From contig JADYZW010000054.1 in assembly GCA_020852955.1 (NCBI GenBank), forward strand, positions 11,139 to 75,138: a stretch of DNA of 64,000 nt, written 5' to 3'. The notes below the pieces were generated by a model. That model saw nothing but the letters and a program-made list of their open reading frames with translations. It was not told the origin of the DNA and did not search any database. A program made the position numbers and the translations under genes. Source of the stretch: Deltaproteobacteria bacterium. GTDB taxonomy: Bacteria; Desulfobacterota; Binatia; UTPRO1. Positions 749 through 61,794 of this stretch are shown here, piece after piece. Numbering within the stretch: the first letter of the stretch is position 1; each line of letters starts with the position of its first letter.

Positions 749-2134
749 ATGCGACTCGCGGTGCGCGTGCACGGCCGGAGCCACCGGTTCGGCTCCGTCC
801 GCGACGTCCTCGCGCGCGCGAACGAGCCCAAGGCCGGCGACGAGCGCGCCGGCATCGCCGCGCGCTCGCACGAGGAGCGCGCCGCCGCGAAGCTCGTCCT
901 CGCGGAGCTCACCCTCGGCGACCTGCGCGCCCATCCGGTGGCGCCGCTCGACGAAGACGAGGTGAGTCGCGTCATCGACGCGGGCGTCGACGAGGCCGTG
1001 CATCGCGAGATCCGGGGGTGGAGCGTCGGCGAGCTACGCGACTGGCTCCTCGCCGACGACACGACGACGGACGCGATGCGGCGCGTGAGCCGCGGTCTCA
1101 CGGCCGAGATGGCGGCCGGCGTCGCGAAGCTCTGCTCGAATCTCGACCTGATCTACGCCGCGCGGCGCCTGCCGTTCGTCACGCGGGCGCGCACGACGGT
1201 CGGCCTGCCAGGCCGGTTGAGCACCCGGCTCCAGCCCAATCACCCGAGCGACGATCCCGACGGGATCACGGCGTCGATCTACGAGGGGCTCGCCTACGGC
1301 GCCGGCGACGCGTTGATCGGCATCAACCCGTGCATCGACGACGTGCCGAACGTCACGCGGCTCCTCGAGCTCACCCGCGACGTCATCGCGCGGCTCGGCG
1401 TCCCGACGCAGAACTGCGTCCTCGCCCACGTCGCGACGCAGATGCGCGCGCTCGAACGCGGCGCGCCGATGGACATCATCTTCCAGAGCCTCGCTGGCAC
1501 CGAGGCCGCCGTGGCGAGCTTCGGGACCTCCGTCGCCATGCTCGATGAAGCGCGCGCGATGATCCGCGAGCGCTCGACGCTCCGCGCGCGCGACGGCCGG
1601 GTGAGCCCGACGCAGCTCATGTACTTCGAGACCGGACAAGGATCGGAGCTCTCGGCCGGCGCCCACGGCGGCGCCGACCAGGTGACCCTCGAAGCGCGCT
1701 GCTACGGCCTCGCGCGCCGCTACGATCCGTTCCTCGTGAACACGGTCGTCGGGTTCATCGGACCGGAGTATCTGGCGGACGGGCGCCAGATCGTTCGCGC
1801 GGGGCTCGAGGACCACTTCATGGGCAAGCTGCTCGGCGTCCCGCTCGGCGCCGACGCCTGCTACACCAATCACGCCGAGGCCGATCAGAACGACTGCGAC
1901 ACCCTCGCCACGCTGCTCGCGACCGCCGGCTGCAACTACTTCATGGGCGTCCCCGCCGGTGACGACGTGATGTTGAGCTACCAGTGCACCAGCTTCCACG
2001 ACGGCGCGACGCTGCGGCAGCTGCTCGGCCTGCGTCCGGCGCCCGAGTTCGAGGCCTGGCTCGTCGCGCGCGGGCTGATGGCGGACGGACGCCTCACCGG
2101 ACGCGCCGGGGACCCCGCGGTGTTCCTCGCATGA
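749..2134 (+). CDS. eutB: Ethanolamine ammonia-lyase large subunit
   Basis: Full-length resemblance to EutB: ..LQPNHPSDDPDGITASIYEGLAYGAGDALIGINP.., YFETGQGSELSAGAHGGADQVTLEARCYGLARRYDPFLVNTVVGFIGPEYL, GLEDHFMGKLLG, AGCNYFMGVP. Confidence 0.95.
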   Translation: MRLAVRVHGRSHRFGSVRDVLARANEPKAGDERAGIAARSHEERAAAKLVLAELTLGDLRAHPVAPLDEDEVSRVIDAGVDEAVHREIRGWSVGELRDWLLADDTTTDAMRRVSRGLTAEMAAGVAKLCSNLDLIYAARRLPFVTRARTTVGLPGRLSTRLQPNHPSDDPDGITASIYEGLAYGAGDALIGINPCIDDVPNVTRLLELTRDVIARLGVPTQNCVLAHVATQMRALERGAPMDIIFQSLAGTEAAVASFGTSVAMLDEARAMIRERSTLRARDGRVSPTQLMYFETGQGSELSAGAHGGADQVTLEARCYGLARRYDPFLVNTVVGFIGPEYLADGRQIVRAGLEDHFMGKLLGVPLGADACYTNHAEADQNDCDTLATLLATAGCNYFMGVPAGDDVMLSYQCTSFHDGATLRQLLGLRPAPEFEAWLVARGLMADGRLTGRAGDPAVFLA

Positions 2135-2862
2135 GCGCCCCCTCGCCCGCCCTCGCGCGCCTGCTCGCGAAGACCCCAGCGCGCCTCGCCGTCGGGCGCA
2201 GCGGCCCGCGACTCCCGACCGCCTCCTACCTCCGCTTCCTCGCCGACCACGGCCGCGCGCGCGACGCCGTCTTCATGGAGGTCCCGCCCGCGACGGTGAA
2301 GAAGCTCGGGCTCGTCGAGCTCGCGACCGCAGCCGGGTCGCGGGCCACGTACCTCCGCGAGCCCGGCCTCGGACGTACGCTCGCTCCGAGCGCCCGCGCC
2401 CGCCTCGCGCGCTGCCGGAAGCGCCCGGAGGTGCAGCTGATCGTCATCGACGGGCTCTCGTCGGCGGCCGTCGTCGCGCACGCGGGCACGCTGCTGCGCG
2501 TCCTCGTGCGCGAGCTCGGCAAGCGGCGCCGGCGGCTCGGCACGCCGCTGTTCGTCCGCCACGGCCGCGTGCGCATCCAGGACGAGATCGGACACGTGCT
2601 CCGCCCCGAGGTGTGCTGCGCGATCGTCGGCGAGCGGCCCGGTCTCGCGACCGCGGCGAGCCTCTCGGCGTACGTCATCCATCGACCGACCCGCGCGTCG
2701 ACGGAGCCCGACCGCACGTTGATCTCGAACATCCACGACGGCGGTGTCGCGCCGGCGGCGGCCGCGCGCCAGATCGCCGACCTCGTCGACGCGTGCCTCG
2801 CGCACGCGGCGAGCGGCGCGGCGCTCGCGACGGCGCTCGCCGCCGGCACGCGCGCCCGGTAG
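2131..2862 (+). CDS. eutC: Ethanolamine ammonia-lyase small subunit
   Basis: ATG at 2131 overlaps the eutB stop (ATGA). MSAPSPALARLLAKTPARLAVGRSGPRLPTASYLRFLADHGRARDAV.. is typical EutC. The track ORF start at 1984 is an out-of-frame extension over eutB. Confidence 0.9.
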   Translation: MSAPSPALARLLAKTPARLAVGRSGPRLPTASYLRFLADHGRARDAVFMEVPPATVKKLGLVELATAAGSRATYLREPGLGRTLAPSARARLARCRKRPEVQLIVIDGLSSAAVVAHAGTLLRVLVRELGKRRRRLGTPLFVRHGRVRIQDEIGHVLRPEVCCAIVGERPGLATAASLSAYVIHRPTRASTEPDRTLISNIHDGGVAPAAAARQIADLVDACLAHAASGAALATALAAGTRAR

Positions 2863-3052
2863 CACGCACGTTACGGACATCCCCGCCCCTTCCCGTAGGG
2901 AACGCCAGCGCACCTGCGCGGGAGCGGAGCCGGCCGCCGTCGCCGCCGCGATCGCGCAGCGGCGCCAGGCACGCGGTCGCTCCTCCGCGCCGCGGCCGCA
3001 TTCGAGCGCGCACGCCTTGACTGCCCCGGCGAATCTCCATACCGCCTGTCCC

Positions 3053-52373: not shown

Positions 52374-54773
52374 TCAGTCGGCGCGATCCACCAGCGACTT
52401 CGCGGAATGGCGGCGCGCCGGGGGCGAGTAGACCGCCTCCCAGCACGCGCCGTCGCTCGACTGCATCTGCACCGTGAGCGGCAGCGCCAGCGTGGCGAGG
52501 TTCGGCATGGCGAGCAGCGGCCCCCGGCCGCGGATCGCCACGCGCGCCGCGTTCTCCCGGCTTCCCTCGCGGAGGTCGAGGACCTGGACGGCGCCGGCCG
52601 CGCGGTCGGGGTTGCGATACGAGAATCCGCGGCGCACGGCGCGCCAGCACGGGCGGTGCGTCCGCGGATTGCAGACGCCGCCCGCCGGCGCGAGAGCGGC
52701 GAGCGCGAGCGACCCGCCTCCGTCGTACACGCAGAGCCGGTACGACGTCGTCGCGAGCGGATCCCCGAAAACGCTCCGCGACACCACGGGTCCGCGACTC
52801 CAGCGCCACGCGACGCCGTCGTTCTTGTCGGGCGTCCGATCGGTGAGCGTGAGCGCACCGCCGTCCGGCCGGAGCGCGCGGCGACATCCGAGCATCGCCA
52901 GCGCCGGACAGGCGGTCGCCTCGTTCCCCGGCGTCACCGTCGGAACCGGGAGCACCTCCGAGGTCGCCGTCTGCGTCGGTGTCGGCGCGAGCACGGAGGT
53001 CGCCGTAGGGCTCGCCGTCGGAACGAGCGTCACGGTCGGAGCCGGGGTCGCCGTGCGGGTCGGGGTCGGCGTCACGGTGCGGGTCGGGGTCGGCGTCGCG
53101 GTGCGGGTCGGAGCCGGCGTCGCCGTTCGGGTCGGGGTCGGCGTCGCGGTGCGGGTCGGCGTCACGGTGCGGGTCGAGGTCGGGGTCGGCGTCACGGTCG
53201 GCGTCGGCGGCACGGTCGGGGTCGGCGTCGGGGCTCCGTCGGTCAACGTCCAGGTGTCGAACACCGTCCCGTCCTCGTCGACGCCGGTGACCGTGAGCGT
53301 CGTGTTGTCCGTGAGCGTGACGTACCCGAAGGAGTACTTTCGGCTGTAGCTGCACAGGTCGTTCTGCCCGTTGTAGCCGCAGCCCGTCTGCACCCACGTC
53401 GGCTGCTCGTCGGCCGAGCGGCACACGTTGCCCTCCTGGTCCGTCGGTACCCCACCGACCGCGATCGCCTGACCGTCGAGCTGCCCGCCTCCGGCCCCGC
53501 ACGTCACGTAGTACGTGCCCTTCCCGTCGATGCCGGGCGCGATCACGGACGGATCGCTCGTGGCGGACGACCCGACGAAGTCGTCCATGAAGCGCGTCCG
53601 CTCCCAGAAGTGCTCGTGCCCGTCGAAGACGACGTCAACGCCGCAGTCCTCGGCGATCGGCCCGATGCGAAAGCGGGTCGGGATGTGACTGCCGCTCGCG
53701 TTCCGGCGACACACCCCGCCCGTCCCGCAGTCCGCGTCCGCGCCGCACCCCATGCCGATCCCGGCGCTGCCGGCCTGGCACCAGCCGTTTCCACACGAAT
53801 ACGGCAGGTGATGGAGGAAGAGGAACTTCCATTTCTTCGTGGCCGTGACGCTGCTCGTGCAGAGGACGTCGCGGAGCCACGCCTTCTCGTCGGCGCCCGT
53901 CGCCCAGTCCTGCGCGCCCGTCGGCCCCCAGTTCGTGTTCGCGACGACGAACAGCGCGTCGCCGGAGGTGACGTAGTACCACGCCTCTTCGCGGTTGCCG
54001 CCCGTGTGCCCGTTCGTCGGCGCCGCGAAGATCATCTTCTGGGGCGTCGACGGCCAGACGGTCAGATCCGCGTCGCCGAGCTCGTTGCCGACCGCGCCGT
54101 AGCGCAGATCGTGGTTGCCGATCGTGAAGAACGCCGGAGTGCGCTCGAGCGTCTCACGGAAGATGCCGAGGACCTTGCTCGACCAGGTCGTCACCGTGTT
54201 GACGCCCTGGGGGGAGCCGTACTCGTTGTCGCCGACCGTGATCAGGAGATCGGGATTCCTGGCCGCGACCTGGGTGGCGATCTTCTGCGATGGGCAGGTG
54301 CCGCCCGCGTAGCACCAGGCCCCGCTGTCGTAGGCGCCGAAGTCGCCGACGATCGCCCAGCTGATCGTGTTCGCGGCGCCGGCCGGCCCCTGGAGCGTCT
54401 CGAAGCCGGCCGAGGCGCTCACGGGCCGCACGACCGCGCCGTTGGTGCGGAGCTGGTAGTAGTAGGTGGTCCCAGGCGTCAGGCCGGTGAGGTCCACGCG
54501 GTGGCACGTTCCGGGGTCGCCGAACTCGCACGCCGGCTGCCCCTGCTGCTTCGCGCCGCCGAGCGCGGTGGTGGTCCCGTATTCGACGACGTCGTCCTCC
54601 GTGGCGGCCTCGTCGGTCCACCAGAGGATCGTCATGGTGGTCGGATCGTTGGCGGGGTTCTGGACGACGGGCCCGCACCCGACCGCGCCGCTCGGGCAGA
54701 CGATCGCGACCGCTCCGGCGGAGGTGGCCGCGGTGACGACGACGCAGCATACGAGCAAAGCGGTCCGGATCAT
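52374..54773 (-). CDS. Secreted purple-acid-phosphatase-like metallophosphoesterase with a Cys-rich insertion, a Pro/Thr repeat linker and a 6-Cys C-terminal module
   Basis: ATG at 54773. Signal MIRTALLVCCVVVTAATSAGAVA. FN3-like N-domain (TTYYYQL). All five PAP motifs: VGDFG, VGDNEY, IGNHD, FLHHLP, DGHEHFWER. Confidence 0.8.
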   Translation of the reverse strand: MIRTALLVCCVVVTAATSAGAVAIVCPSGAVGCGPVVQNPANDPTTMTILWWTDEAATEDDVVEYGTTTALGGAKQQGQPACEFGDPGTCHRVDLTGLTPGTTYYYQLRTNGAVVRPVSASAGFETLQGPAGAANTISWAIVGDFGAYDSGAWCYAGGTCPSQKIATQVAARNPDLLITVGDNEYGSPQGVNTVTTWSSKVLGIFRETLERTPAFFTIGNHDLRYGAVGNELGDADLTVWPSTPQKMIFAAPTNGHTGGNREEAWYYVTSGDALFVVANTNWGPTGAQDWATGADEKAWLRDVLCTSSVTATKKWKFLFLHHLPYSCGNGWCQAGSAGIGMGCGADADCGTGGVCRRNASGSHIPTRFRIGPIAEDCGVDVVFDGHEHFWERTRFMDDFVGSSATSDPSVIAPGIDGKGTYYVTCGAGGGQLDGQAIAVGGVPTDQEGNVCRSADEQPTWVQTGCGYNGQNDLCSYSRKYSFGYVTLTDNTTLTVTGVDEDGTVFDTWTLTDGAPTPTPTVPPTPTVTPTPTSTRTVTPTRTATPTPTRTATPAPTRTATPTPTRTVTPTPTRTATPAPTVTLVPTASPTATSVLAPTPTQTATSEVLPVPTVTPGNEATACPALAMLGCRRALRPDGGALTLTDRTPDKNDGVAWRWSRGPVVSRSVFGDPLATTSYRLCVYDGGGSLALAALAPAGGVCNPRTHRPCWRAVRRGFSYRNPDRAAGAVQVLDLREGSRENAARVAIRGRGPLLAMPNLATLALPLTVQMQSSDGACWEAVYSPPARRHSAKSLVDRAD
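52925..53240 (-). repeat. Imperfect 24-bp tandem repeats encoding a (TPTPTRTA)-like Pro/Thr linker
   Basis: Protein: TPTPTVPPTPTVTPTPTSTRTVTPTRTATPTPTRTATPAPTRTATPTPTRTVTPTPTRTATPAPT. DNA: reiterated gtcggggtcggcgtcacggtgcgg units. Confidence 0.8.
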
Positions 54774-55002
54774 GACGTCCACGCGGCACACGGAAGATGG
54801 GATCGCTCCGGACGCGCGTCTCGGCCGCCAGCGGCCCGCCGCACGCGCCCTCCGCATCGCCCCGCACGAGTATGCGCGATTGCCGGAGACGGGCCAAGCG
54901 ACGCCCCCCGGGATCCCGGGGGGCGCGACCGCGACCGGGACCGCTCTCCGGGGATCGTGGTTTGCCGGCGCCTTCGCGGACCTGATAGACGACCACCCCT
55001 CC

Positions 55003-55521
55003 GTGACGCTACCCGACGCGCGGCCGCACCGGCGGCGACGAGCATGGCGGGTCGTCGTGCTGGCGTGCGCGATGGTCGCCTCCGGATGCGCCGCCGCGGA
55101 CGGACGCCCGCTCGCGATCACGGCGGCCGACGCGGTCTCGTCGCGCCCCTGCCCCGCCGCCGACGCGAGCGGCGTCGTCACGCGGGTGAACGAAGCGCGC
55201 CGCCGCGCCGGGCTCCCCGGCCTCGGCATCGACGCCAACCTCGCGCGCATCGCCGCCGCGCGCTCGGCCGGGATGGCCTTCGAGCGGCGCCTCTCGCACA
55301 GCGGGTGGGAGCACGCGCTCCGCCGCGCCGGCCTCCGGGACGACCGGCTCGGCGAGAACGTCGCGTACAACTACGCCGATCCCGAGGCCGTAATGGCGGG
55401 GTGGATGCGGAGCCCCGGCCACCGCGCCAACATCCTGCGGCCCGCCTTCACGCGGATCGGCGTCGGCTGCGTGATCGACGACCGCGGCCATCGCTGGTGG
55501 ACGCAGGACTTCGCCGGCTGA
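55003..55521 (+). CDS. CAP/SCP (PR-1/YkwD-like) domain lipoprotein
   Basis: In-frame GTG at 55003 gives RRRRAWRVVVLACAMVASGC. VNEARRRAGLP, GENVAY, WMRSPGHRANIL. The exact start is uncertain. Confidence 0.7.
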   Translation: MTLPDARPHRRRRAWRVVVLACAMVASGCAAADGRPLAITAADAVSSRPCPAADASGVVTRVNEARRRAGLPGLGIDANLARIAAARSAGMAFERRLSHSGWEHALRRAGLRDDRLGENVAYNYADPEAVMAGWMRSPGHRANILRPAFTRIGVGCVIDDRGHRWWTQDFAG

Positions 55522-55531
55522 CGGCTCCCGC

Positions 55532-56272
55532 ATGGCGTCGAGCGACCGCGACCTCTTCCTGCAACGCCTCACCGACCCGCGCGCCGTCCCGATCCTCGCC
55601 CGCAACGCCATCCCGGTGATCGGCGTCTTCGTCTTCGGCTGGTCGGTGCTGGAAGCGCTCGCCGCCCTCTTCCTCGACGCGCTCAGCACGCTCTGGGTGG
55701 TCGGCGCCGTCGCGTCCTACTTCGGGGCCAAGCAGTTCGACTACGGCGAGACCGGCGTCCTGGACGCCCTGCACTTCTCGGCCGGCGTGCTCGGGATCTT
55801 CCTCTTCGTGGCGGGCATCCTCACCTTCGCGCTCGCGGTGCCGATGTTCATGCTGCTGCCGGTCGTGCTGAGCGCCGACGTGGACCCGTGGACGCTCGTC
55901 ACGAGCGGCTGGCTGCCGCGCGCCTTCGGCCTCATGGTGGCCTGCCAGATCCCGAGCTTCGCGCAGCGCATCCGGGTGGCGCAGGCCTCGGGGCTTCCGC
56001 CCGAGAAGCTCGGCCTCGACGGCGAGATCGGCTTCCTCCTCCACCGCAGCATCGTCCTCACCGCCGTCGGCTCGTCCCTCGCCGTGTTCGGCGCGTACGG
56101 GCTCCCCCTGCTCGTGATCGTCGCGCAGACGATCAGCGCCGCAACCGAGATCATGCGCGACCGGTACATCGGCTATCTGACCGCGTCGCGGCACGCGCCG
56201 GCCGACGCCGGAGCGCCGCCGATGACGCGAGCGGCGCGCCTCCGGCGCTGGCGGAAGCGGAAGCGACGCTGA
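55532..56272 (+). CDS. Polytopic membrane protein of unknown function with a basic C-terminal tail
   Basis: 5-6 hydrophobic segments (NAIPVIGVFVFGWSVLEALAALF.., GVLGIFLFVAGILTFALAVPMFMLLPVVL..). Ends RLRRWRKRKRR. Confidence 0.55.
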   Translation: MASSDRDLFLQRLTDPRAVPILARNAIPVIGVFVFGWSVLEALAALFLDALSTLWVVGAVASYFGAKQFDYGETGVLDALHFSAGVLGIFLFVAGILTFALAVPMFMLLPVVLSADVDPWTLVTSGWLPRAFGLMVACQIPSFAQRIRVAQASGLPPEKLGLDGEIGFLLHRSIVLTAVGSSLAVFGAYGLPLLVIVAQTISAATEIMRDRYIGYLTASRHAPADAGAPPMTRAARLRRWRKRKRR

Positions 56273-56450
56273 GCGGCGTCCGCCGCAGCAGACGCCATGC
56301 GCCGCCCGTGGGCCGGGCCGGGACCATATATCCGCCCTATCTAGTTCCACCGGGATGCTTTTCGTTGACACGCAGCGGGCATCCCACCCAAGATCCGCAC
56401 GCTCGGAAGCCCCCCGACTGCGAGGCGCCCACGGCCGAGGAGGAACTTGC

Positions 56451-57056
56451 ATGCTGCTGCGATACGCGATCCTGGGCCTCTTGGACGGTCAAGAGCTCCA
56501 CGGCTACCGCCTCAAGAGCGTCTTCGAGGACCGGATCGGCCCCGCCTGGTCGTTGAACTTCGGACAGATCTACCAGACGTTGAAGGATCTGCGTCGCCGC
56601 GGCCTCGTGGAAGGACGCTTCGATCAGGGCGACGGCCACATCGGGCGCTGGGTCTACACGGTCACGGCGAAGGGACGCCGCTCGCTCGATACGTGGCTCC
56701 GGCGCTCCCCGAAGCAACCGCAGCCGATCCGCGACGAGATCTTCATCCGCTTGCTCGTCCTCGACCGAAAGGATCGTGACGCGTCGCTGAATCAGGTGGC
56801 CCGGCAAGAGCACGTCTATCGCGAGCACTTGACCCACCTGACCGTCCATCGCCGTAGCCTCGAGCCGGTGAACACGGAAGAGCGTCTGCTGAACTCGCTC
56901 GCGGCCGACGCGGCCCTGTTCCACGCCGAAGCCCACCTGAAATGGCTCGAGCACTGCCGCGCGACGCTGCTCGCCTGGCAGCCGACTGAGGACCCGCCGC
57001 CGCCGAAGTCCTCGCTTCCGACGAAGCCGGCGCGCCCGTCGAAAGCGTCGCGATGA
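56451..57056 (+). CDS. PadR family transcriptional regulator (long, two-domain type)
   Basis: GAGGAGGA RBS. MLLRYAILGLLDGQELHGYRLKSVFE..WSLNFGQIYQTLKDLRRRGLV...YTVTAKGRRSL. Confidence 0.85.
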   Translation: MLLRYAILGLLDGQELHGYRLKSVFEDRIGPAWSLNFGQIYQTLKDLRRRGLVEGRFDQGDGHIGRWVYTVTAKGRRSLDTWLRRSPKQPQPIRDEIFIRLLVLDRKDRDASLNQVARQEHVYREHLTHLTVHRRSLEPVNTEERLLNSLAADAALFHAEAHLKWLEHCRATLLAWQPTEDPPPPKSSLPTKPARPSKASR

Positions 57057-58522
57057 CGGGAGTCGACGACTTCGTCGGCGCGATCGAGGCGAGCATGCGG
57101 GCCGCGATCGAGAGTTCGCCGACCGCCGCGCCGGCAGCCCGCCTCCTCGACGCCGGCGGGAAGCGATTGCGCGCGCGCCTGGTCTGGTGGGCGGCCGCCG
57201 CCTGCCGGGAGCCGCTGCCCGCCGGCGCGGGCGAGCCGCTGATCCGGGCGGGTTCCGCCATCGAGCTCGCGCACCTGGCATCCCTGATCCATGACGATCT
57301 CGTGGACGGCGCCGAGACCCGGCGCGGAGTCGCGACCCTCCATCGCACCCACGGAGCTCGCACGGCGACCGACGCCGGGGCGGCGATCGCCCACCTTGCG
57401 AACGAGCTCGCGGCCGCCCTCGGAACCCGCGCCCGCCGGGCGATGCGTCGAGCGCTCCTCGCGACGTGCCGGGGACAGATCCGTGAGCTCTCCCTGCCGT
57501 TCGTCGCCGTCTCTCCGCGCACCCGCCTCGCCGTCATGCAGGAAAAGACCGGGGCGTTCTTCGAACTCGCCGCGGATCTCGGCGCGATCCTCGCGGGGGG
57601 GAACCCACGGTCGCGCGCGGCCGTGCGGCGCTTCGCCCGACGATTCGGGGTCGCGTTCCAGGTCGCCGACGACGTCCTCGATCTCGCCGGCGCCCGTGTC
57701 GACCTCGGACGCACCAACGGCGCCGATCTCCGTGAGGGCGTCCTCACGCTGCCGGTCCTGCTGGCGAACGATCCGGACCGACGACTCGCGCCGCTGCTCG
57801 AACGCATCCGGTGCACCCGCGACGCAGACGCCGTCGCCGACTGCGCCACGCGCGTGATCCGGGGTGGCGGAGTCGCCGCCGCGAGCGCGGTCGCGGAGTG
57901 GTGGCTCGCGCGCGCCGTCGAAGCGCTCGCGGGGCTCGCGGGGCGGAACGCGTGCGCCCATCTGGTCGAGCTGGCGCGCACGAGCGTCCAGCGCGGCCTT
58001 CGCGTCTCCACACCGACGTTCGCGCGCGATTCCCGCTCCTCTCGAGAACCGCCGCCTGCCCTGTCGTTCGCGAACCGCCACCCCCGGCAGGATCCGGACT
58101 TGGCCGCCTGGACGCCGCCCCGACTGGCCCACCTCCTGGACTGGCTTCATCCGGGCCTCTCCGCGATGGTCGCGGCGCGCGCGGCGGAGCGCACGGTCGA
58201 CGAACACCGGAGCGTGCTCCGTGAGCGTCTGTGCCGCGGACGACGATGGTCGCCAGACGCGATCCTCGCGGCGGAAGCCATCGCGCTCGCGCACGCCCTC
58301 GCCGACGACGGCAGCCTGGCGCGCGATCCCGTCCTGACGCTCGCACTCGTCGACGCCCTTCATTGCGCAGCGATCGGATTCCTGGCGGTCGCCCCCACGT
58401 CGCGGGAGCACGTCCGGATGGCGGCACGGGCTCGGAGGCTCGTCGACGACCGTCGCCCGTACGACCGTCGACCGGAGCTCCGCCGTCCCTACGAGCAGGC
58501 GGCGATCCACCTCACGGCGTGA
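57053..58522 (+). CDS. trans-Polyprenyl diphosphate synthase-like protein with a C-terminal extension of about 150 aa and unknown function
   Basis: The ATG overlaps the PadR stop (ATGA). GKRLRA, first Asp-rich motif LIHDDLVDGAETRRG, KTGAFFELA, second Asp-rich motif FQVADDVLD. No motif recognised in residues from about 330 to 489. Confidence 0.75.
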   Translation: MTGVDDFVGAIEASMRAAIESSPTAAPAARLLDAGGKRLRARLVWWAAAACREPLPAGAGEPLIRAGSAIELAHLASLIHDDLVDGAETRRGVATLHRTHGARTATDAGAAIAHLANELAAALGTRARRAMRRALLATCRGQIRELSLPFVAVSPRTRLAVMQEKTGAFFELAADLGAILAGGNPRSRAAVRRFARRFGVAFQVADDVLDLAGARVDLGRTNGADLREGVLTLPVLLANDPDRRLAPLLERIRCTRDADAVADCATRVIRGGGVAAASAVAEWWLARAVEALAGLAGRNACAHLVELARTSVQRGLRVSTPTFARDSRSSREPPPALSFANRHPRQDPDLAAWTPPRLAHLLDWLHPGLSAMVAARAAERTVDEHRSVLRERLCRGRRWSPDAILAAEAIALAHALADDGSLARDPVLTLALVDALHCAAIGFLAVAPTSREHVRMAARARRLVDDRRPYDRRPELRRPYEQAAIHLTA

Positions 58523-61074
58523 CCGCGCTCCTCTTCACCGTCAGCCTTCCGTACCTCCGCGCCCACGCCGGCCGCATTCTCCTCACGCTGCTCGGCGTCA
58601 TCATCGGCGTCCAGGGCATGGTCGCGATGGGGGCCCTGAACCATTCCATCATCAAGAGCTTCGAGGCCGGCCTCGAGGCCATCGCCGGCAGTGCCCGCCT
58701 GCAGATCGCGGGCCCCGAAACCGGCATTCCCGACACCCTCGCCGAGGACGCCCTGCGCGTCCCCGGCGTCCAGAGCGCTGTCGCCATCGTCGACGGTTCC
58801 CTGACCTCGGCGGACGATCCCTCGCTCCGGATTCGCACCTTCGGCATCGATCTCCTGAGCATGGTCGGCACGCGCAGCCCGCAGTTCCCGCGCGAGCACG
58901 TCCACATCGCCGACGAGTTCGGCTTCGTGAATGCCCTCGACTCGATCGCGCTCGGCGCGCCGCTCCTCGCACGGCTCGGCGTCAAGGTCGGCGACACCGT
59001 TCCGCTCGCGACGCCGAGCGGCATCCGGAACTACGTCGTCCGGGGGACGCTCGACGACGTCGGACCCACCAAGCTGTTCGGGGGCCTCGTCGCACTGCTC
59101 GATCTCCCCGTCGCCGAGGCCGTGTTCCTGAGTCCCGGACTCGCCCAGACGATCTACGTCCACAGCGACCCCGCGGCAGACATCGACGAGCTCGCCGGTC
59201 GCCTGCGTACCGCCATCGGCGATCGCGCCCGCGTCGAGCGCACCGAGGCGCGCGGCCAGCAGATGGACGCCCTGCTCGGCAGCGTCCGCGTCGCCCTCTC
59301 CCTCGCCAGTCTCGTCACGATGATCGCGGCCTTCTTCATCATCTACGAGACCATCGCGATCTCGGTCGAGCAGCGCCGCAGAGAGATCGCGATCACCCGA
59401 TCGCTCGGGTTCACGCGCAGATCGATCGCCGGCATGTTCATCCTCGAGTCCCTGATCCTGGGCCTACTCGGCGCGGCGGGTGGCGTAGCTGGGGGCTACG
59501 TCCTCGCGCGCTTGTCGCTGACGACGGCCGTCGCGGGGGTGAGCGGGATGTACTTCACCGTGGCGCCCGGCAGCGTCTTCTTGCCCATCGGGCACACGAC
59601 GCTCGCTGTGACTGCCGGATGCGCAGTGTGCGTGTTCGCAGCCGCTGTACCCGCCCTCGATGCCGCCAGCACTGCTCCAGCACGCATCTTGAGGGGCGTC
59701 ATGGGGGCCACCGCACAGACCCCCTCAGGCCGCTTGCTCGCCCACAGTGCGCTCCTTATCGTACTCGGAACAGCTGTCCTTTGTAGCGACCTGCGAATCC
59801 CGTCTTCCGAAGCGAACACAGCCTGGATCATGCTGGGCTATGGCTTGATGCTGCTCGGCTTTGGATTCCTTGCATCCCACTATGCTTGGGCCTGGTCACT
59901 TGCCTTGAGACCCCTCGCTTCGAGCGCTGACCTAGCAACCAGTCTCGCGTGGGAGTTCTTTTCCAGGAAGCCGCTCCGGATCGCAGCAGCCGCGTCGGCA
60001 ATCATGGTGGGCGCCGCTTTGGTCGTCGTACTGGGATCAGTAGTGCACAGCATCGAAGCGACTCTGCGGGAGTGGATCGATGTCACGCTCGGCGCCGACA
60101 TCAAGATTGGAACAGGCACGGGATTGACGAGCGGATCGTTCGAGGCGTCGCTGGTCGATCGTATCCGATCGCTGCCTCAGGTCTTGTCCGTCGAACGACA
60201 CGAGAAGTCACTATTCTTGATGAACGGCTCCCCGGTCGTCCTGGTCGCAATCGATCCCGCAAATCGACCGCATGGGCCGCTTCTCCTACTCGTACGATCT
60301 TTGCCTGAGCCGTATGCGAAACTCGCGGATGGGAGCGGAGTTGCCGTAAGCGAAAGCTTCGCCCGCCGTTATGGCCATGACATCGAGGACAAACTGACAC
60401 TACCCACAGCTTCCCATCCACGCGTCTTCCAGATTGTGGCGGTTGTCCGAGATTACACGATGGATGTCGGAACCATCTTGATCGACATCGACGTTTACCA
60501 ACGGCTCTGGCGTGACAATCGCCTCACCTACGCCCAAGTTTGGCCGAGACCAGGAACGGATCTCGAAGCCCTCCGAGGTCAGATCAACGTGTCACTAAAG
60601 GACAGTCCCACTGTCGCGGTCGTAACGAACAGTGAGTTCCGAGCCGACGTCGAGAAGCGCGTGCGCGACCTTTTGGGTGTACTGGGATCGCTCCAGATCC
60701 TGGCGTGTGCGATCGCGGTCTTGGGCGTCGTGACGTTCCTCTTGGCCGCTAGTCTGGATCGGCGTCGAGAGCTCTCGATCCTCCGAAGCGTCGGCGTCTC
60801 CGCTCGGCAGATACGTCGCGCCGTCATGATCGAGGGAGGCCTGATCGGCATCACGGGAGCTACTCTCGGGATCCTCGCGGGGATCCCAGCCGCGTACCTG
60901 ATGGTCGCATATTCGATGCCCGCAACGATGGGATGGTCCCTGCACTTCGTATTTCCCACAATGCTCGCGCTCACCACCCTCATCGCCGTCACCGTCGCTG
61001 CGGCTCTCGCCGCCTACTTCCCGGCGCGACAGATCACCCGCGGGGCGATCCTGGCCGGGCTGCAGATGGAGTGA
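58519..61074 (+). CDS. ABC transporter permease with two FtsX/MacB-type modules (TM + periplasmic domain + 3 TM, twice)
   Basis: The GTG overlaps the upstream stop (GTGA). N-terminus LRAHAGRILLTLLGVIIGV. EQRRREIAITRSLGFTRRSI and RRRELSILRSVGVSARQI (FtsX-domain cytoplasmic loop, twice). Confidence 0.8.
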   Translation: MTALLFTVSLPYLRAHAGRILLTLLGVIIGVQGMVAMGALNHSIIKSFEAGLEAIAGSARLQIAGPETGIPDTLAEDALRVPGVQSAVAIVDGSLTSADDPSLRIRTFGIDLLSMVGTRSPQFPREHVHIADEFGFVNALDSIALGAPLLARLGVKVGDTVPLATPSGIRNYVVRGTLDDVGPTKLFGGLVALLDLPVAEAVFLSPGLAQTIYVHSDPAADIDELAGRLRTAIGDRARVERTEARGQQMDALLGSVRVALSLASLVTMIAAFFIIYETIAISVEQRRREIAITRSLGFTRRSIAGMFILESLILGLLGAAGGVAGGYVLARLSLTTAVAGVSGMYFTVAPGSVFLPIGHTTLAVTAGCAVCVFAAAVPALDAASTAPARILRGVMGATAQTPSGRLLAHSALLIVLGTAVLCSDLRIPSSEANTAWIMLGYGLMLLGFGFLASHYAWAWSLALRPLASSADLATSLAWEFFSRKPLRIAAAASAIMVGAALVVVLGSVVHSIEATLREWIDVTLGADIKIGTGTGLTSGSFEASLVDRIRSLPQVLSVERHEKSLFLMNGSPVVLVAIDPANRPHGPLLLLVRSLPEPYAKLADGSGVAVSESFARRYGHDIEDKLTLPTASHPRVFQIVAVVRDYTMDVGTILIDIDVYQRLWRDNRLTYAQVWPRPGTDLEALRGQINVSLKDSPTVAVVTNSEFRADVEKRVRDLLGVLGSLQILACAIAVLGVVTFLLAASLDRRRELSILRSVGVSARQIRRAVMIEGGLIGITGATLGILAGIPAAYLMVAYSMPATMGWSLHFVFPTMLALTTLIAVTVAAALAAYFPARQITRGAILAGLQME

Positions 61075-61077
61075 GGC

Positions 61078-61794
<717 letters not shown>

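Follow-up and report, generated by a model that had tools for sequence, protein, structure and literature searches.

Intragenic allelic cassettes that are exchanged by recombination are known from the sensor-domain/pheromone specificity groups of agrBDC and comQXP and from the target-recognition domains of hsdS. Here we report a new example of this phenomenon, located in a YbbP-type ATP-binding cassette (ABC) permease of uncultured bacteria. The permease gene (positions 58519-61074, plus strand; 851 amino acids) lies in a 64,000-nucleotide stretch of contig JADYZW010000054.1 from a Deltaproteobacteria bacterium (assembly GCA_020852955.1), hereafter called the window, and its interior is a 1.36-kb block of low GC content at third codon positions (GC3). 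Very probably, this block is a long-lived, exchangeable allelic cassette, which has been reshuffled among high-GC Binatia-like lineages by homologous recombination. Like the agrBDC, comQXP and hsdS systems, the locus features a sharply bounded, hyper-divergent block, discrete classes that are incongruent with the flanks, and crossovers in conserved borders; as with comQ in comQXP, a polyprenyl-synthase-fold gene, itself variable, is located directly upstream. Unlike these systems, it belongs to the ABC permease family, with no signalling peptide or kinase involved and no co-varying operon partner found, and its distinctive property is a consistent GC3 deficit of 0.2 in a genome of ~71% GC.

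For the transporter itself, the closest described system is YbbAP(-TesA) of E. coli (PDB 9ge6/9ge7; PMC12646458), whose periplasmic domains lie between transmembrane (TM) helices TM1-2 and TM7-8 and in which a hydrophobic pocket opens on the periplasmic side between TM6 and TM9 (PMC12646458); allelic cassette polymorphism of YbbP is not described in that paper. The permease of the window shares with YbbAP the 10-TM, 4+2+4 arrangement, the position of both periplasmic domains and a separate ATPase gene, and its best Foldseek match is YbbP (9ge6_A; full length, 876 columns, TM-score 0.63/0.67), ahead of LolE/LolC, BceB and MacB. Unlike in YbbAP, the gene stands in a PadR / polyprenyl synthase / permease / ATPase cluster, the sequence identity is 14%, and the genes called around it include no TesA-like hydrolase (at the locus only; the wider genome was not searched). 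BceAB (PDB 7tcg, 8g3a) is likewise a 10-TM FtsX-type permease, with a variable extracytoplasmic domain between TM7 and TM8 and a lipid-binding site positioned like the YbbAP pocket, and offers an analogy for a specificity-determining variable region. However, BceB has a single extracytoplasmic domain and works with the BceRS two-component system, and the match to it is poor (TM-score 0.35-0.44, root-mean-square deviation 16-18 Å; marginal in sequence, E=0.0014). As in LolCDE and MacB, each module combines an FtsX 4-TM fold with a MacB-like periplasmic core domain and the ATPase resembles LolD, and, by analogy with LolC/LolE, the two modules may be functionally asymmetric; unlike in LolCDE and MacB, the modules are fused in one chain with two linker helices, and the permease is an ortholog of neither.

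The permease contains two FtsX domains (PF02687; 108 bits against a cut-off of 25.5) and two MacB_PCD domains (PF12704; 88.5 against 27). Its FtsX C-terminal three-helix domain follows a TM helix and a periplasmic core domain of the MacB type, as in type VII ABC permeases, and the dedicated ATPase of a type VII ABC transporter is encoded at window 61078-61794. The hydropathy map gave 10 TM helices in a 4+2+4 order on a single chain, with the periplasmic domains between TM1-2 and TM7-8 as in fused YbbP-type proteins, and the AlphaFold model reached a pLDDT of 77 and a pTM of 0.71. The protein is a YbbP-type (type VII ABC) fused double-module FtsX/MacB permease with two MacB-like periplasmic core domains. 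Other identities were considered and rejected: LolCE (TIGR02212; 95.7 bits against a cut-off of 362.45), MacB (NCBIfam; 27 against 966), ADOP (TIGR03434; 55.5 against 622.3, and an ATPase gene is adjacent here, whereas an ADOP permease has none) and, for the regulator, a padR_acidobact partner (TIGR03433; 32.9 against 101.8). The cassette extends from mid-TM4 to TM9 and takes in both linker helices (TM5 and TM6), TM7 and TM8 with periplasmic domain 2 between them, and the second coupling helix; its 3′ limit is the loop ahead of TM10. In line with the earlier proposal of a substrate-facing half, it encodes the half of the permease that faces the substrate or a partner. By analogy with YbbAP, the transporter would be a mechanotransmission machine, drawing hydrophobic molecules out of the inner membrane via the TM6/TM9 pocket; both helices would fall inside the cassette, which by this comparison may encode the counterparts of the YbbAP pocket helices together with periplasmic domain 2.

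The start of the permease was set by ortholog alignment at the GTG codon at 58519; a longer open reading frame (ORF) from 58231 was rejected, because its 5′ extension is an out-of-frame overlap with the upstream gene and the orthologs start at 58519. In sliding windows of 30 codons, GC3 is 0.83-1.0 up to ~59600, 0.50-0.80 from ~59610 to ~60960 and 0.8-0.9 beyond, and a two-change-point maximum-likelihood fit placed the changes at 59605 (support 59587-59611) and 60960 (support 60955-61030). GC3 is 0.675 in the 452 inner codons versus 0.915 in the 399 outer codons (Fisher p=1.9e-18). The original prediction, made from the letters of the window, had described an abrupt low-GC3 step inside the FtsX permease gene at 59460-60960 and asked for a sliding GC3 profile; the step is clearly present, with its end exactly as given and its start ~145 nucleotides further downstream. 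The GC content of first and second codon positions is nearly constant over the permease segments (0.59, 0.58 and 0.55), and nearly all of the shift is synonymous. At fourfold sites the share of C is 0.64 outside the block and 0.38 inside it; the shares of A (0.04 outside, 0.23 inside) and T (0.04 and 0.14) go up, and this holds for each of the eight codon families. The run of A/T-ending codons quoted in the prediction, CTTATCGTACTCGGAACAGCTGTCCTTTGTAGC, maps to 59755-59787.

The step is also the sole sustained one in the 64 kb, as had been claimed. A per-gene minimum GC3 based on a stop-to-stop ORF filter picked wrong frames and was dropped in favour of a three-phase GC plot of the whole window, in which 59701-61200 holds the only consecutive 300-nucleotide windows with a best phase below 0.82, the other low windows being single gene boundaries. 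The reading frame is open through the whole block and the domain order is intact, so that the coherent protein read from the sequence earlier is supported by the frame, the Pfam domains and the model alike. No significant repeats flank the low-GC3 segment, no Rfam match was found in it, and no conserved ORF is embedded in the cassette; the reported lack of flanking repeats and of a mobile element agrees with the repeat search and with the conserved synteny described below.

The closest relative (L004, GCA_020848745.1) has the same gene order as the window, and 11.4 kb (52.6-64 kb) could be aligned with it at an identity of 0.88-0.98, except at 59.5-61.0 kb, where identity sinks to 0.46-0.71. 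Between ~59570 and 60967 the divergence is 30-54%, as against 2-12% outside; mismatches are dense between 59568-59572 and 60966 and become sparse from 60988, which coincides with the GC3 change points. The synonymous divergence (dS, method NG86) from L004 is 0.18-0.33 in five flanking segments and 0.24 in the conserved 5′ part of the gene (segment A; nonsynonymous divergence, dN, 0.017), versus ~2.7 in the cassette (dN 0.42), a saturated value; NG86 is uninformative between allele classes owing to this saturation, and the flank dS of distant pairs, at a GC3 of 0.9, is probably underestimated. In the trees, the window groups with L004 in segment A (bootstrap 98-100%) and in the ATPase gene (100%), whereas in the cassette it groups with another locus, L003 (100%), and L004 groups with L109 (100%), within two allele classes termed Y (98%) and X (97%), respectively. 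Because the segment trees conflict at 98-100% bootstrap, the permease gene is a true mosaic, produced by homologous recombination. The divergence break is sharp, synonymous sites included, and the junctions are independently reproduced: the Logan single-run assemblies L001 (SRR8750958; window 53130-61378) and L002 (SRR11294022; window 57307-61075) are exact substrings of the window with 0 differences, and each crosses both junctions. The replacement of part of a gene by homologous DNA, which had been proposed earlier along with segment phylogenies and a comparison of orthologous loci as checks, is thus borne out by the jump in divergence, the saturated dS and the conflicting trees. Amid the synteny at 0.9 and above, further short dips against L004 occur at 53051-53200 (0.50), 54701-55000 (0.68-0.76) and 58001-58150 (0.67); indels, intergenic stretches or the variable synthase tail probably account for them.

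The named relatives are metagenome-assembled genomes (MAGs) labelled Binatia, 'delta proteobacterium' or Polyangiaceae UTPRO1, UTPRO1 being an order of Binatota (PMC8262859); on this basis the window probably stems from a Binatia-like bacterium. Among 23 close-clade proteins, the cassettes fall into 9 clusters at an amino acid identity of at least 65%, and typical cassette pairs are ~55% identical in nucleotides. Amino acid identity is 80-99% in segment A (76-93% in nucleotides) and 0.48-0.88 in the cassette, and the two are uncorrelated (rho 0.03); the nearest neighbour differs between segment A and cassette in 19 of the 23 proteins, and pairs that are 99% identical in segment A may fall to 52% in the cassette. 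Class X comprises L004, L109, L008, L112 and L006, and class Y the window, L003, L108, L110 and L111. L111 (class Y) and L113, which stem from different sequencing runs, are 99-100% identical over ~2.5 kb upstream and ~0.5 kb downstream, with 3 mismatches in ~1.6 kb upstream and none past codon 830, versus 48-57% in the cassette, whose 5′ limit lies at codons 288-345 and whose last mismatch is at codon 830. Crossovers accordingly lie in conserved borders, at the end of module 1 (~codons 290-360) and in the loop and TM10 (~codons 814-830). The nearest sampled class Y relative of the window cassette is L003 (~72% nucleotide and 80% amino acid identity); a cassette-only search of 5.8 billion proteins gave only fragments of 52-69% identity, none nearer than L003.

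The cassette alleles of the clade are monophyletic with respect to 12 outgroup orthologs (100/100), and the distance within the clade, taken as a ratio to the outgroup distance, is 0.81 for the cassette versus 0.25 for segment A. This monophyly, together with the deep coalescence of the cassettes, indicates that the alleles are old, clade-internal lineages. Many deeply divergent classes with a distribution incongruent with the flanks are one pattern expected of a balanced polymorphism. Within allele classes, omega is 0.04-0.25, which points to purifying selection. A search of the literature for earlier accounts of a hypervariable FtsX-like permease brought up nothing relevant. In one distant ortholog (L012, 54% amino acid identity), the GC3 dip (0.71 versus 0.89) is confined to the equivalents of amino acids 506-718, that is, periplasmic domain 2, which suggests, on sequence grounds, that this domain is the core of the variable unit and that cassette boundaries vary between clades. 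In the window protein, too, periplasmic domain 2 is the least conserved core of the cassette (conservation 0.35-0.6). The L010 ortholog (contig CAZWAX010000073.1) has a frameshift at ~codon 640 with many stops after it, being either a pseudogene or an assembly error, and was therefore truncated for the analyses; the database protein P0028 is likewise truncated, at 654 amino acids.

The GC3 deficit of ~0.2 is a standing property of the cassette gene pool and not a trace left by this transfer or by a low-GC donor genome. Of 17 close-clade loci, 16 have a cassette that lies 0.07-0.28 below segment A in GC3 (Wilcoxon p=1.5e-5), with change points at similar codons. Pooled over the cassettes, the GC3 profile is level, at 0.60-0.75 and for the most part 0.65-0.70; cassette GC3 correlates in part with that of the host (rho 0.53-0.60), and a link to residue conservation, as selection for translational accuracy would give, was not found (rho 0.02-0.04), invariant residues having a GC3 of 0.67 in the cassette versus 0.86 in segment A. 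Between alleles, the identity of third positions is about that expected by chance. The class X lineage of Polyangiaceae bacterium UTPRO1 (L008/L051, two assemblies) is the sole close-clade lineage without a step, with a cassette GC3 of 0.92-0.93, and the L011 cassette (0.90) also lacks the deficit; low GC3 is therefore not functionally required.

The best surviving rival, a one-off import from a foreign, lower-GC genome whose composition has not yet been ameliorated, is improbable. The segment has truly been exchanged, its GC3 of 0.675 is far from that of the host (0.91), the true donor is unsampled, and the partial correlation of cassette and host GC3 is what partial amelioration would give. 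However, L004, L109 and L112 bear a different allele that is also low in GC3 (0.70-0.76) and has the same boundaries, and these class X alleles, seemingly vertically inherited, retain the deficit at a mutual dS of at least 1.2, which should have been time enough for amelioration; this speaks for an offset of the region that is stationary. In no sampled family member does the background GC3 go down to the level of the cassettes (segment A 0.71-0.93; cassettes 0.58-0.80), and the hosts of the cassettes nearest to that of the window have a GC3 of 0.82-0.88 outside it. The deficit shared by 16 of 17 loci and the clade-internal origin of the alleles likewise speak against a foreign island, as do the lack of a mobile element, the synteny kept with L004 and a tblastn search of plasmids and phages that gave only matches of at most 27.5% identity. 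The lower-GC donor suggested in the original prediction is thus not supported; since the deficit is pool-wide, the alleles are clade-internal and the nearest hosts are high in GC3, the low-GC3 cassette most likely replaced another low-GC3 cassette.

Very improbable is a rapid divergence of module 2 in situ without recombination, whether by relaxed constraint, by positive selection or by targeted hypermutation, and with a GC content lowered by AT-biased mutation. Mutation in bacteria is generally AT-biased, cassette conservation is low overall, and the cassette is less constrained than module 1 (dN 0.027 versus 0.011 between L009 and L052). Divergence is nevertheless bimodal: L009 and L052 are 92% identical in both parts (dS 0.36 in segment A and 0.27 in the cassette, in effect equal), whereas the window and L004 (93% in segment A) and L111 and L113 (99-100% in the flanks) are ~50-57% identical in the cassette. 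This bimodality and the equal dS of L009/L052 rule out local hypermutation. Moreover, synonymous sites in the cassette are saturated at a flank dS of 0-0.3, discrete allele classes are common to lineages with divergent flanks, all bases over 1.4 kb are affected, unlike the pattern of a diversity-generating retroelement, and the gene order around the cassette is kept, no genes having been added.

Selection for A/T-ending codons in the mRNA, whether for translational pausing during the insertion of module 2, for RNA structure or for an internal regulatory element, would account for the recurrence of the deficit at the same place over many lineages and alleles, as a conserved requirement would, but is hardly credible: L008/L051 and L011 keep the architecture without the deficit, GC3 is flat over 450 codons of TM helices, loops and soluble domain alike and unrelated to residue conservation, third positions are not conserved between alleles, and neither an Rfam match nor an embedded conserved ORF was found. 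A metagenomic assembly chimera, with the interior of a different, lower-GC organism joined in silico, had been named as the alternative and could draw on the apparent metagenomic origin of the contig, on junctions in conserved sequence, where assemblers may switch strains, and on the existence of related strains with different cassettes, but its probability is negligible, because the SRR8750958 and SRR11294022 contigs, two independent assemblies, are identical across both junctions, the architecture and GC3 step recur in 16 other independently assembled loci, including MAG contigs of 0.25-7 Mb, and the reading frame and domain order are intact.

The reading that we prefer, an old allelic cassette exchanged within the clade, has several points to answer. 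The direction of the swap depends on weak nodes, (window, L004, L109) with 68% in segment A and (window, L004, L008, L109) with 55% in the ATPase gene. As to positive or frequency-dependent selection, the dS between classes is saturated and the within-class omega is that of purifying selection. A U-shaped cassette GC3 profile, which would be expected if recombination entered from the edges, was looked for, and the flat profile gives no positive support for such penetration. The class X cassette of UTPRO1 L008/L051 has escaped the deficit, no close donor allele was sampled (the nearest being ~80% identical in amino acids), and the structural homology to YbbP comes with a low sequence identity.

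For an exchanged cassette, the most likely course of events, on parsimony, would be that a class Y cassette took the place of a class X one in the window lineage after its split from L004 (flank dS ~0.2-0.3); the flank trees put the class X loci L109, L008 and L112 nearest to the window and L004, so parsimony makes the window lineage the recipient. By analogy with YbbAP, the cassette may hold what sets the specificity of a hydrophobic-molecule extractor, namely the pocket helices and periplasmic domain 2, and its alleles would probably differ in the molecule bound and extracted from the inner membrane, or in the antagonist able to bind. Such diversity would probably be kept by balancing or frequency-dependent selection, acting via variable substrates or partners or via antagonists. 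The composition could follow from the same structure of the gene pool: each allele class would be a small sub-population that seldom forms a heteroduplex with the rest, and AT-biased mutation in the cassette would then be less strongly opposed by GC-biased gene conversion and/or selection for GC-ending codons. Recombination and GC3 are linked in bacteria (PMC4450053). That a weakened GC-favouring force in rarely recombining allele classes is the cause of the low GC3 is a speculation that we put forward tentatively. A stronger version, in which the force that holds GC3 at 0.9 is sub-genic and dependent on homologous exchange, with the cassette settling ~0.2 lower, and in which the locus, with its at least nine alleles beside a second variable block in the polyprenyl synthase gene, is also a hitherto unrecognised self/non-self or arms-race locus, is still slightly less likely; if it were true, sequence a few dozen bases from the cassette would stay at a GC3 of 0.9 while the block drops, and the locus might serve as a receptor or target of antagonists or, in these uncultured Binatia-like bacteria, in the strain-specific handling of isoprenoid lipids.

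These results bear on the composition-based calling of horizontal transfer or misassembly: a GC3 step inside a MAG gene may be genuine biology and does not have to indicate foreign low-GC DNA. The stable deficit of ~0.2 has sharp edges, recurs in many alleles and hosts and does not follow residue conservation; as a test case it is unusually clean and could help to tell biased gene conversion or recombination-dependent selection apart from bacterial mutation bias. The location of the cassette points to TM5-TM9 and periplasmic domain 2 as the putative specificity module of the barely characterised YbbP-type class. The features of the locus are collected in Table 1. Polarisation of AT-to-GC versus GC-to-AT changes in the cassette was judged unreliable, as no outgroup allele is close enough.

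Table 1. Parts of the permease gene and neighbouring genes in the window (positions are those of the window)
Feature	Position	Strand	Description
PadR-family transcriptional regulator	56355..57056	+	Pfam PadR and Vir_act_alpha_C; first gene of the cluster
Trans-type polyprenyl diphosphate synthase homolog	57053..58522	+	489 amino acids; PF00348, E=1.9e-46
Segment A, conserved 5′ part of the permease gene	58519..59604	+	TM1, periplasmic domain 1, TM2, TM3, start of TM4; GC3 0.91
5′ crossover/transition zone	59360..59604	+	Divergence from L004 climbs from ~2% to ~20%, mostly at third positions; saturated from 59568-59572
Low-GC3 exchangeable cassette	59605..60960	+	Amino acids 363-814; GC3 0.675; change points, L004 trough, incongruent trees
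Second MacB-like periplasmic core domain	60037..60696	+	Amino acids 507-726, between TM7 and TM8; Pfam MacB_PCD, model
Conserved 3′ end with 3′ crossover point	60961..61074	+	TM10 and C-terminus; GC3 back to 0.8-0.9
ABC ATPase partner, LolD/FtsE/MacB-like	61078..61794	+	PF00005, E=1.6e-34

The permease belongs to a conserved cluster in the order PadR, polyprenyl synthase, permease, ABC ATPase, PNPOx and fatty-acid desaturase. The PadR position is likewise occupied in L001, L004 and L110-L115, and the GC3 of the PadR gene in the window (0.82-0.86) is mildly under the window median of ~0.91, with no step. The synthase stop and the GTG start of the permease overlap by 4 nucleotides, an arrangement that suggests translational coupling of the two genes. 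The ATPase scores 219-224 bits against the NCBIfam models for LolD and FtsE, under the equivalog cut-offs; its gene is 93.8% identical to that of L004 in nucleotides (dS 0.20), with a phylogeny congruent with segment A.

The synthase is the fastest-evolving flank gene between the window and L004 (78% amino acid identity, dS 0.47, dN 0.138). It is unusually long, with ~170-240 C-terminal residues that match no Pfam domain (none in the last 239), and among NCBIfam models it scores highest with 'family 2 encapsulin cargo polyprenyl transferase' (160 bits; cut-off 450). It also forms a second variable block: L111 and L114 are 61-87% identical over locus coordinates 1351-3000, with 94-99% on both sides. 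Variation in the synthase and in the cassette is not always coupled, and no co-varying partner of the cassette is visible in the operon, as L111 and L113 share identical synthase and ATPase genes while their cassettes differ. Between the ATPase and PNPOx genes, some relatives have extra genes (locus coordinates 6472-7661 in L111 and L113) that are missing in the window and L004: an ORF of 69 amino acids in L110-L113, followed in L111 and L113 by a gene for a DUF4118/PAS protein. In L110 and L112 a DUF4118/PAS gene is located upstream of PadR instead.

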